Part shown: positions 27,060-44,894 of the stretch, piece after piece
Numbering within the stretch: the stretch's first letter is position 1
Layout: each line of letters starts with the position of its first letter
NCBI RefSeq assembly: GCF_963853765.1
Contig: NC_088854.1
Location: 58,528,001 to 58,592,000 of the forward strand
Reading direction: 5' to 3'
Origin: Magallana gigas
Taxonomy: Eukaryota
Length of the DNA: 64,000 nt
Notes under the pieces: model-generated
Database searches by the model: none
What the model was told of the DNA's origin: nothing
Seen by the model: only the letters and a program-made list of their open reading frames with translations
Made by a program: the position numbers and the translations under genes

Positions 27060-29094
27060 ATGGAAACTATTCTAGAAAAACTCGGATTGGGCTCTTTAAC
27101 AAGAAAGTTTCAAGAAGAAAAGGTAACACCTGATATTGTATCAAAACTCTCAAAAGTTGAAATGCAAATTTTAGGAGTTGCTGATAGATCAGCCATGATG
27201 AAATTGAGAGTGGCTTGTATTCACCATGGAAGCAATCTTTTGATACAAAGAAATTCTGGGTACTTGATACCAGAAGATGTGTTGGACTTTTTGCTGGAAT
27301 CTAAGTTCAAAATCATTGAAATTTCTCAAATGTTAAATGTGTCAGAGAGCACAATATACAGAAGGATGAGACGATGCAATCTTTCTGTATCAAAATATAA
27401 CGATATATTAGATCATGAGCTGGATCAAATAGTTTCTGAAATTGCTACAGAGTTCCCGAAATGTGGAGAAACAATGGTCAGAGAAATTCTTCGGCAAAAA
27501 GGTGTCCAGGTAAGAGAAATTCCTCTTTTTTCAATATTTAAATTTGCAAATATGCTTTTTGATATGAATCTAACACTGAAAAAAAAAGTTCACTATTTTA
27601 TATTTACATTTTGCAAATGTTTCCTTACACGAACCAATGACATTTTAACATGATTTCGCTACCTTCAAAGCCCGAATGAATCAACAAAGAAAGCTTTTGT
27701 ATTAAACAAAATCCACTTATATATATATTAATGTTTACATTTTTAACTGTCTTTGTCTGTGATAACATTACGAATCAATTTTGAACCCCAAAACCCAATA
27801 ACTTCACAAAACATGAATGACACAAATGGGCGTGTCTTATAGCATAATCGAAAAACGGTATTGTAATACATAGCATGTGCTACATAAAAAATAGTGGTTT
27901 TAAAATAATGTTGTTTTAAAGTGTACAAATTGGAAATAATATAAATATAAGTAATACGGAATCATTCTTTGAATATTATGAGGTGATAATTTCGGTCGGA
28001 GCGTAGTCAAATCCATCATAAAGCCCTGGGCTTTATTGGATTTGACCACGCCCCGACCGAAATTATCACCTCATAATACTCAAAGAATGATTCCTTATTC
28101 CTTGAATAATTGTACGACATGATCTGGAACAGCTGTACATACCAATTCTTTTAATCTTCGAATTCTGTTTCATATCATGTTAAACAATTGGATGTTTTTA
28201 AAACAGGTAACAAGAGCAAGACTGCGAGAGAGCTTACATAGAACAAATGGGGATAACATAAAAAGCAGGATAAAAGGAAGATTACAAAGAAGAGTTTACA
28301 ATGTCGAAGGTGTCAATCATCTTTGGCATATAGATACAAACCACAAATTGATCAGATGGAATTTCATAATCGTTGGTGGTATCGATGGCTTCAGTAGGTT
28401 TGTCACATTCCTTAACTGTACAGACAACAATAAGTCTGAAACAATTTTCAGTTGTTTCCAAAGTGCTACTCGAAGCTATGGCTTGCCTTTAAGAGTTCGC
28501 TCTGATAAAGGACTTGAGAACAAAGCTGTCGCTGAATATATGGTCAGAACTCGAGGACCAAACAGAGGAAGCATGATAACTGGAAAAAGTGTCCACAACC
28601 AAAGAATTGAGAGGCTGTGGAGGGATGTGTATGAAGGAGTTCTCTGCTACTACTATGAACTTTTTTACTATATGGAAGACGTACAACTGCTTGATATTTT
28701 GAATGACATACATATGTTTTGTTTACATTATGTGTATCTGAAAAAGATAGACGAAAAGCTTCAAATATGGAAAGAAGCATGGGCTAATCATAGATTACGC
28801 ACTGTTAAGACCTCGCCATTGCATTTGTTTGCAGCCGGCATTATCAATAATCCAATTGATGTTTTAGATTTAGATTGGGAACAGTATGGTATTGAAGATA
28901 ATACTGATGTTCAATATCTTCACAATGTTAATCCCAGGCCTGTGTTTGATCCGCCTTCATATGCAGTAACAAATGACACTCTACAAGAATTGCAACAACA
29001 TTGTCCATTTAATTGGCATTCTGCTAACTATGGAATTGATATTTTCCAAAAGGCTGTGGAAATTGTCGAAAGAAACAACAGCTTAACAATATGA
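27060..29094 (+). CDS. SAM-HTH-integrase core (DDE) transposase, 445 aa, intact (exons 27060-27509, 28207-29094)
   Basis: N-terminal SAM-like [41 protein letters not shown]; rve motifs [19 protein letters not shown] and [13 protein letters not shown]. Phase-0 intron CAG|GTAAGA ... ACAG|GTA. Confidence 0.9.
27958..28094. repeat. Near-perfect ~137-bp palindromic (foldback) element in the integrase intron
   Basis: GGAATCATTCTTTGAATATTATGAGGTGATAATTTCGGTCGG... pairs with ...CCGACCGAAATTATCACCTCATAATACTCAAAGAATGATTCC. Confidence 0.9.
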
Positions 29095-30240
29095 TATACA
29101 ATGTAAATTCACTTGCCACTGTCTGCAAGACTAGTGTATCTTTTTTCCTAATCTGCTTGGCCCATTGACTAAGAATGACCAGATTTTTATCATGACAAAA
29201 AAGGGCTATTTAGTTACCATTCATGACTCTACTACAATGACTCTTCATGATGGTCAATAAAATTAGTAAGATGAACAAAGATTTGAGATTTGTTTTTATT
29301 ATACTGCTTTTTGATAGAAAAAAATGTCATTCCTTCTTGGTTTGAAAAAATAAACATAGGTAATCAAACTTTACATAGCTCACCGAGATGAAGGGTCACC
29401 TTTATGAGATCGCCTTTATTATATCATACGAAAATGTATAATGTCATCATACAATATGATATTTTATTATGTGATACTCTTCTGTATCACGTATATTGTA
29501 TCAGATGATTTTTATTGTTTGGTATCAAACGATAGAATTTAAAATACATTGCATTATATTAGGCATGCCAAAGCAAAGGGCCGTAACTCGATCTTCTCTA
29601 TTTTTTATATGTCTCTGACGTCATGCGTATTTTAGGCATGAGGGTTGTTGTCTTTTACGGCTTACAACTCGAAGAAAACGTACGATATATTCCGAATGTT
29701 AAAGGAACCAGTTTACGAAATGATCCAAGCGCATGCCTTTCTCTCTACTTCTGGAGAAACACGTGTTTTTATCAAAGAAAAATAAGCTGAAAGAGAGCGG
29801 TAAGTGTGTTTTGTCTTTTTAAATGCAAAGGCAACCTTTTAACTATGATAGGTAAAATATATCATACTTTATGTCGTTAATTATTATAAGAAATGATGAA
29901 AGAATGCACGACAATATGTATATTTTGTCGAAATAATATGTGGTGTGTTGATAGCCTCGTTTCCGTTCAAAAATGGCGGCTCCCATATTTCACACTGATT
30001 TTCACCTTTTATTTCATTTTCAAAGATATATAGCGTAGTTTATGCTTGTATTTAAAGTTATTTTGAAACCATATTATTGAAATTGTTCTTATTACGGATT
30101 ATCTTCGATCAGATAATAAGATTTTAACGTTAATTTCGATATGTCAACAGAGGAAATTCGAAATGTATATTGAATTGATTATGGTAGGCGATTTACATAT
30201 TGTAATGGCATTCATTTACTACTTTCAACAGATCAAGAGT

Positions 30241-43800: not shown

Positions 43801-44894
43801 ATTTTTAATCCAATGCCATTTATACTTTCAATTTGATAGAAAGGTTGATTTCCGGTGTGATCGTTTTTTGCCAAGTCATTCTTCAGTTTGGTTAAAAGAA
43901 TATATTAATTTCAAGTCTGTGAGTATTGTAAAAACCAGGTACGTAGCATCGGGAGGGGGGGTGCCACTTTGGTTTTTCTGAAATTTACATACAAAAAAAT
44001 GAATTAATATAGAGTTGCCCCCCCCCCCTTTTTATGGGACCATGTAAAAAATTGAATTGAAAATAAGGAAATAAAAAGTGAAATTAAAGTTAAGGTATAC
44101 TTTGCTTGTCAAGATTTTTTGGATGAGTCTGCCCCCCCCCCCTTTCCAAAACAATGCTATATGCCTGTAAAACAGCTTAATTTTAATTAAATAGTTATTG
44201 AAATAAACCAGGGCACAGTCATGTATGAATTTTTTCTTCCTCATCGTGTGCAAGTCAACCTCCCATCCGAAAAACCCAAGCTGTAGCAGGGCAAGACCCA
44301 TATTACAAAAGTTATGTCCATCTTTGGGGGTGGGGTGGGGCATGGGTTTCTAAATGTAGACTTGTAATTTAGAGGAATAAAATAGATTTAAAGAAATTTC
44401 AAAGGACGCCAAAATATTTGGTAGCACAAAGAAGGGAAATAATCGGAAAGATTGCCCCCCCCCCCCTTTGACCTTTTCGTTTGTCCAGCAAAGGGAAACA
44501 ACTCAATCCACTTTCTATTTCTCAAAACATTTTCTACAATAAAATGTGTGAAAACCCGCAAGGTTTTTGGTCAAGCAATTGGTAAACATTAATCTATAGG
44601 TTAATATGTATGCTTCAAACTTCATTAATTAATTATAACTTTAAATCAAATTAATTCGTCTTCTAGACACGAGCACGTGAGCATACTTACTGCGTCTAAG
44701 CTCTTCCCTAAAACGTATCCTATCGCCGATCGTGGCGATTCCAAGCCTCGATAGATCTACATCGCTTAAACTTTTGCAAATATCAACGTTGTTTACATTT
44801 GCCTCCGCAAAGTTATTTGCTAAATTTGGGAGATCAATGTTTTTTAAAATTAGTTTAATGTCGTCCATTTTTCCAAATGACCCGGATAGTGTGA

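Follow-up and report, generated by a model that had tools for sequence, protein, structure and literature searches.

In the window analysed here (the whole stretch of 64,000 nucleotides from the genome of the oyster Magallana gigas, contig NC_088854.1), a DNA transposon encodes a transposase and a HECT-like partner protein that both begin with a SAM domain, and the surfaces conserved on these two domains are opposite ones. The pattern fits a one-way heterodimer in which the mid-loop of the transposase SAM would bind the end-helix of the partner SAM, an arrangement that the conservation of the two sequences makes fairly likely. The superfamily to which the element belongs, IS3EU/GingerRoot, is already known; what the present analysis adds is a SAM pair with split faces, together with the limits of that finding. 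The features of the element are collected in Table 1.

Table 1. Features of the transposon and of its insertions, in positions of the window
Feature	Position	Strand	Remarks
IS3EU/GingerRoot DNA transposon	26531-45378		encloses both SAM genes; TATGG ends
Left target-site duplication GGGAAG	26525-26530		identical 6 bases beyond the right end
Left terminal inverted repeat (TATGGAACG...)	26531-26853	+	with 21-nt subterminal repeats; end common to 7 other copies
Transposase exon 1	27060-27509	+	SAM (aa 1-57, about 27060-27230), then HTH domains
Transposase exon 2	28207-29094	+	DDE core D193, D250, E285; Pfam rva_4 E 1e-77
Nested unrelated inverted-repeat element, 5.1 kb	29560-34702		missing from 7/7 other copies, hence in the window copy only
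Partner exon 6	36818-37068	-	HECT C-lobe; catalytic Cys aa 642 (PTGNTC), Phe at -4
Partner exon 5	38764-38941	-	private stop codon 38890-38888 (aa 553) in the window copy
Partner exon 4	40962-41098	-	HECT N-lobe; RNA joints
Partner exon 3	41542-41668	-	DLGGPRREF motif; RNA joints
Partner exon 2	42031-43193	-	basic linker, ubiquitin-like beta-grasp, C2HC zinc finger, low-complexity linker, HECT start
Partner exon 1	44691-44868	-	SAM, end-helix motif TIGDR; ATG 44868; 178 nt; GTAAGT donor
Right terminal inverted repeat	45056-45378	-	pairs with the left repeat
Right target-site duplication GGGAAG	45379-45384		same as the left duplication
Tandem copy of 42325-45981, 3657 bp	45981-49637		100% identity; second SAM exon, part of exon 2, right end

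The element and its two genes

According to the accessible text of PMC10045372 and PMC12730594, the hallmarks of IS3EU/GingerRoot are TA..TA ends and a 6-bp target duplication. The window element has these two features and, with its TAYGG..CCRTA terminal inverted repeats, also shares with the superfamily (Repbase; accessible parts of PMC10045372 and PMC6839031) an integrase-like DDE core, which is of the IS3EU lineage and lacks an HHCC domain (rva_4 E 1e-77; Repbase motifs compared by eye). The protein that the preliminary description called an integrase is an IS3EU DDE transposase. By eye, the core of Repbase IS3EU-3_CGi, as given in the supplement alignment of PMC10045372, matches that of a sister family from the same SAM subclade (L021/L024), and the window-family core was not met among the first 12 of the 34 rows of that alignment.

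Seven other copies, about 99% identical to the window element, occur in the genome and indicate a size of about 13.7 kb without insertions. The window copy and five of these seven have a 6-bp target-site duplication of their own, one copy has 5 bp and in one the right end is disrupted. The window transposon is young. A protein that bears the label Crassostrea angulata matches a paralogous transposase of the same genome at 100% identity. When the other copies were compared, the 3657-bp tandem duplication was seen in the window copy only, and this region (42325-49637) was either duplicated very recently or is an artefact of the assembly. The nested element has inverted ends of the sequence TAGGCATGCC and what looks like a 7-bp duplication, and a second copy, identical at the left end, lies at G000:C2:43.6 Mb. 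Its open reading frame (30688-33753, plus strand) encodes a 1021-aa protein with no Pfam match above the cut-off, the C-terminal end of which resembles a spindlin-like Tudor domain (E 4e-5), possibly a histone-mark reader on a transposase. Just left of the transposon, an open frame of 441 codons (24015-25340, plus strand) with no significant Pfam match is probably a host exon. In the joined loci L007+L008, a non-autonomous element of a different IS3EU family (13738-16556) sits at the right end of a window-family copy and adjoins another inverted end sequence.

The transposase is encoded by two exons and comprises 445 aa in the order SAM, HTH domains and DDE core; the spliced junction of its exons is found in the database protein P0001. 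As a single sequence, its N-terminus scores under the Pfam cut-off (SAM_1 E 0.055). At the family level, SAM_1 is matched at E<=0.05 by 28 of the 77 transposase-SAM members (best 4.8e-6), the best PDB match of the 77-sequence profile is the tankyrase-1 SAM (E 8.9e-5), the AlphaFold2 model has five helices with a pLDDT of about 90, and SAM domains head the Foldseek results for this model (prob 1.00, rmsd 2.0-2.7, with an E of no better than 0.15). Matches in the ESM Atlas reach 0.80-0.82 for the SAM, as leads only, and consist solely of unnamed eukaryotic clusters for the middle domain. Family profile, AlphaFold2 and Foldseek agree, and the earlier claim that this gene starts with a SAM (ATG 27060, plus strand) is borne out: by profile and model, the N-terminus is a genuine SAM domain, recognised as a family and as a fold, not as a single sequence. 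It is present in 86 of 99 transposase matches, which is not a family-wide frequency because the N-terminal region served as the search seed, and in 42 of the 50 transposase loci found on metagenome contigs; several of the remaining eight start past the N-terminus by match range, and some have partial SAM scores. No partner SAM was seen on these 50 loci, the contigs being short (1-10 kb), and viral contigs yielded no relative among 62 pattern matches.

The partner gene consists of six minus-strand exons and is convergent with the transposase gene. Its SAM passes the Pfam cut-off (SAM_1 30 bits, cut-off 23; E 6.9e-7), the partner-SAM profile matches the Bicc1 SAM (E 3.5e-10), and the SAM model of the homolog P0008 superposes on the tankyrase SAM with a Z of 10.6. 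This N-terminus is a genuine SAM domain, and it lies, as first described for the ligase gene, on an exon of its own (178 nt, from the ATG at 44868 on the minus strand). In the P0008 model, the SAM is followed by a ubiquitin-like domain, a zinc finger, a disordered linker and the HECT fold; the ubiquitin-like domain resembles the TBK1 ULD with a moderate Z of 7.3 (rmsd 2.7, 80 residues), and matches to zf_C2HC are present in partner homologs. The codon at 38890 is a stop in the window copy, which ends at aa 553, ahead of the catalytic Cys 642, and is a sense codon in the six of six other copies holding exon 5 and in all four RNA runs. RNA editing as the source of this DNA/RNA difference was rejected, since the RNA base is present in those six genomic copies. 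All partner exons are open in two of the seven other copies.

RNA contigs confirm introns 2-5 of the partner gene. In three of three contig runs, exons 2-6 are spliced and intron 1 is read through, while the depth over the SAM exon is zero; the exon 1-2 joint of the window family was not seen in these three runs or among the raw-read joints listed (seven others lie outside that listing). This raises the possibility that the window family for the most part decouples its SAM exon from the HECT exons, either by a downstream start in intron 1 or by intron retention, and that docking is splice-regulated or vestigial. The read-through of intron 1 next to complete splicing of all later introns points that way, and the retained form would stop after 75 residues. 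Against it, exons 1 and 2 are in frame by canonical splice sites, the SAM exon is open in six of the seven other copies, and contigs lose rare forms and 5' ends; raw reads over the SAM exon are thin (1.4x) in a sample of about 1% of the raw-read run. Such an uncoupling appears improbable. Elsewhere in the group, a sister-family locus (L021) has the SAM and the HECT start in one reading frame, and the two domains are joined on single database proteins (e.g., P0006, P0008, P0016 and P0017). Intron 1 (43194-44690) is retained or used as 5' UTR in the three RNA contig sets, and a free 75-aa SAM peptide arising from its retention would be able to compete for the transposase.

Opposite conserved faces on the two SAM domains

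Tankyrase SAM assemblies bind end-helix to mid-loop, according to the accessible text of PMC4980433, and both SAM alignments (77 transposase and 30 partner sequences) were mapped on the tankyrase-2 polymer residues of that source as a single template. In the transposase SAM, the mid-loop is preserved, with E/Q at the E897 equivalent in 77/77, D902 in 73/77 and an aliphatic residue at the V903 position in 76/77, and the end-helix is not, with Gly921 in just two of the 77 and a hydrophobic residue at Y920 in one. The partner SAM is its mirror image: Gly921 and a hydrophobic residue at 920 are found in all 30 members, and an aliphatic residue at 903 in only 13. At exposed positions, conservation of mid-loop versus end-helix amounts to 3.36 versus 1.84 bits in the transposase SAM, a set gathered by word search that may bias the values, and to 2.14 versus 3.49 bits in the partner SAM. 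A control set of 18 non-redundant sequences, taken from the 28 metagenome-locus SAMs that were found by non-SAM patterns (HTH and core), keeps the direction less sharply (3.04 versus 2.27 bits). Two contact pairs of the template are also opposite in charge between transposase and partner, K898 (65/77) facing D922 (23/30) and K906 (44/77) facing E928 (16/30).

The two domains thus carry complementary conserved faces, as far as sequence conservation on one template can tell. The folds and profiles closest to both are those of the tankyrase, Bicc1, ANKS3/ANKS6 and CNK/HYP SAM assemblies, from which the transposon pair differs in that the faces appear to be split over two proteins of one mobile element. 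In the geometry that follows from this mapping, the transposase SAM would cap the end-helix face of the partner and would not polymerise; that it does so, and thereby brings the partner to the transposition complex, we infer to be moderately likely.

The same residues have to be weighed under another reading, according to which each SAM acts on its own, that of the partner assembling with itself or binding a host SAM and the transposase mid-loop docking on a host SAM for targeting or nuclear localisation. Candidate host targets would be SAMs of the tankyrase, Bicc1/ANKS or polycomb type. Consistent with this, an oyster tankyrase-like SAM scores 26 bits against the transposase profile, within the range of the partner SAMs (10-26 bits), and the partner mid-loop keeps E/Q897 and R/K898 in most members; the window partner SAM, however, has lost both residues (A, N).

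Distribution and origin of the two SAM domains

Among oyster families of the window subclade in which both genes are visible, both SAMs are present in four of four, a number of pairs too small to reveal paired covariation. In the sister family L121-L122, neither protein has a SAM; the N-terminus is a helical domain in the transposase and a short helix in the partner. This concerted exchange of both N-termini argues against independent roles of the two SAMs. The SAM-less lineage (L122, 2100-2522, minus strand; L121, 4183-4425, plus strand; also L137, P0243-P0247 and P0250) has no Pfam match, and the helical domain of its transposase and the single amphipathic helix of its partner are candidates for a different plug and socket. 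A comparable short helix opens many of the SAM-less database partners. In another element, of the HTH-first IS3EU type, the partner position is taken by a CIDE-N-like exon (L135, 6532-6855, plus strand; E 5e-4, below the cut-off), CIDE-N being another known heterodimerisation module.

The partner SAM is also found on its own. In at least seven HTH-first oyster families, one of which matches Repbase IS3EU-1_CGi, the partner has a SAM with the GD(R/L) end-helix motif and the transposase has none. Both partner-SAM exons were found in four of these families and in one further family, the transposase of which was not found, and five partner SAMs of the HTH-first type score 16.5-25.3 bits against a shuffle maximum of 9.6. 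Since the partner SAM occurs with SAM-less transposases, it predates any SAM-SAM docking and has a use of its own, as the reading of independent SAMs would have it; since its motif persists there, the end-helix conservation need not come from the transposase, and its value as proof of a transposase ligand is weakened. The partnership of the two genes is likewise independent of SAM contact, because these families maintain it without a transposase SAM.

In a tree of 38 transposase cores, for which the 18 SAM-bearing ones were hand-picked, the SAM type forms one clade (98/95) among types with a helical N-terminus, far from the HTH-first clade. Judged from this tree, the transposase SAM arose once, and because of this single origin its co-occurrence with the partner SAM counts as one event. 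A second tree of 58 columns, with bootstrap values not settled, included 14 of the 77 transposase SAMs, 16 of the 30 partner SAMs, five distant partner SAMs and SAMs from 26 of 30 host loci. It places all transposon SAMs apart from the 26 host SAMs (98/96), which speaks against independent roles of the two SAMs, and nests the transposase SAMs among the partner SAMs with weak support (89/81). The transposase SAM is therefore probably a copy of the partner SAM that was duplicated inside the element in one subclade, which is plausible, not proven. Given the tree and the joint absence of both SAMs in the sister family, the idea that the two SAMs are independent seems unlikely, and the docking pair put forward in the preliminary description gains indirect backing from the mirror-image conservation of the faces, the likely derivation of one SAM from the other and their matched absence in the sister family.

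A shortened HECT domain and the role of the partner

At the family level, the partner has the bilobal HECT fold, the catalytic Cys and the aromatic residue at -4 that characterise HECT E3 ligases such as E6AP, Nedd4 and UBR5; the window copy stops short at aa 553. The fold of a partner homolog model superposes on UBR5 with a Z of 21, and 29 of 31 homolog C-lobes retain the Cys, which indicates selection on the domain. By common annotation, it is presumably G2E3-like. Unlike those ligases, the partner adds N-terminal SAM, ubiquitin-like and zinc-finger modules and has a shorter N-lobe, not the full-length one of a canonical HECT E3 ligase: its HECT domain measures 225-230 residues against 324 in AREL1, 269 residues of the homolog model span 350 of E6AP, and the 80-95 residues by which it is shorter than E6AP or AREL1 fall in the N-lobe. 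In canonical HECTs, two N-lobe helices flank a small subdomain. These helices are only 34-35 residues apart in the partner HECTs (6/6 measurable). In HECTs this small N-lobe subdomain hosts the E2 site, according to the accessible text of PMC3077247, and the missing part of the modelled partner HECT is probably this E2-binding subdomain. Standard ligase activity cannot be assumed, and the shortened HECT raises the separate question of ubiquitin transfer without the standard E2 site.

These features bear on what docking would achieve. The preliminary description proposed a self-regulating two-component system, in which SAM contact would make the transposase a substrate and the element would ubiquitinate and degrade its own transposase. 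Substrate-recruiting domains are usually N-terminal in HECT proteins, the position that the SAM occupies in the partner, and the catalytic Cys and the -4 aromatic are conserved. Against this stand the probable loss of the E2-binding subdomain and the retention of the partner in families without a transposase SAM, given that a purely self-limiting gene should be easily lost. Of the earlier proposal, the two-component docking part thus gains support; the self-regulating ubiquitination part does not, with a HECT about 90 residues short, and self-limitation would be an unlikely outcome of docking.

A helper role of the partner seems likelier than self-destruction of the transposase. It is favoured because, in each of the three oyster clades examined, transposases are paired with the partner, and because fungal IS3EU has a kinase in the equivalent position (accessible text of PMC12730594). 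In that source, the fungal elements resemble the window element in their TAYGG..CCRTA ends and in an opposite-orientation second gene for a protein-modifying enzyme, and differ from it in having an alpha-kinase in place of the HECT, with no docking domain described in the accessible text. According to the helper reading, binding of the transposase SAM mid-loop to the partner end-helix would hold the partner at the transposition complex, which we consider to be slightly on the probable side. The docked partner might then handle ubiquitin locally through its ubiquitin-like domain, zinc finger and conserved Cys, the least certain step, and this could favour transposition by remodelling the product complex or host proteins in the vicinity, the transposase not being destroyed. 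The helper and self-limiting readings share the docking step, and their odds overlap.

A more general view, offered tentatively, is that IS3EU elements are obligate two-protein transposons with an exchangeable plug and socket, formed by the split SAM faces in one lineage and by a helical domain and a helix in its sister, and that a HECT recruited by the transposase, lacking the usual E2 site and acting in a non-canonical way, remodels the complex or disarms host defences at the integration site. The self-polymerising SAM of the partner would have been duplicated onto the transposase, and its two faces would then have been divided. No account of a HECT gene or of a SAM pair was found in the IS3EU/GingerRoot literature searched, outside of which lie Repbase entries and subscription journals that may name the HECT gene; the accessible parts of PMC10045372 and PMC6839031 name no SAM, HECT or ubiquitin function for this superfamily, and Repbase names of the type '_2p' imply that a second protein has been annotated for IS3EU.

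The docking claim is cheap to test, since two 60-residue domains and two point changes suffice. If true, it would define a concrete, mutable interface between a eukaryotic transposase and a ubiquitin enzyme encoded by the same element, would account for the second gene being kept by IS3EU elements, and would provide a clear natural case in which the two faces of a SAM polymer were divided between two proteins after duplication.
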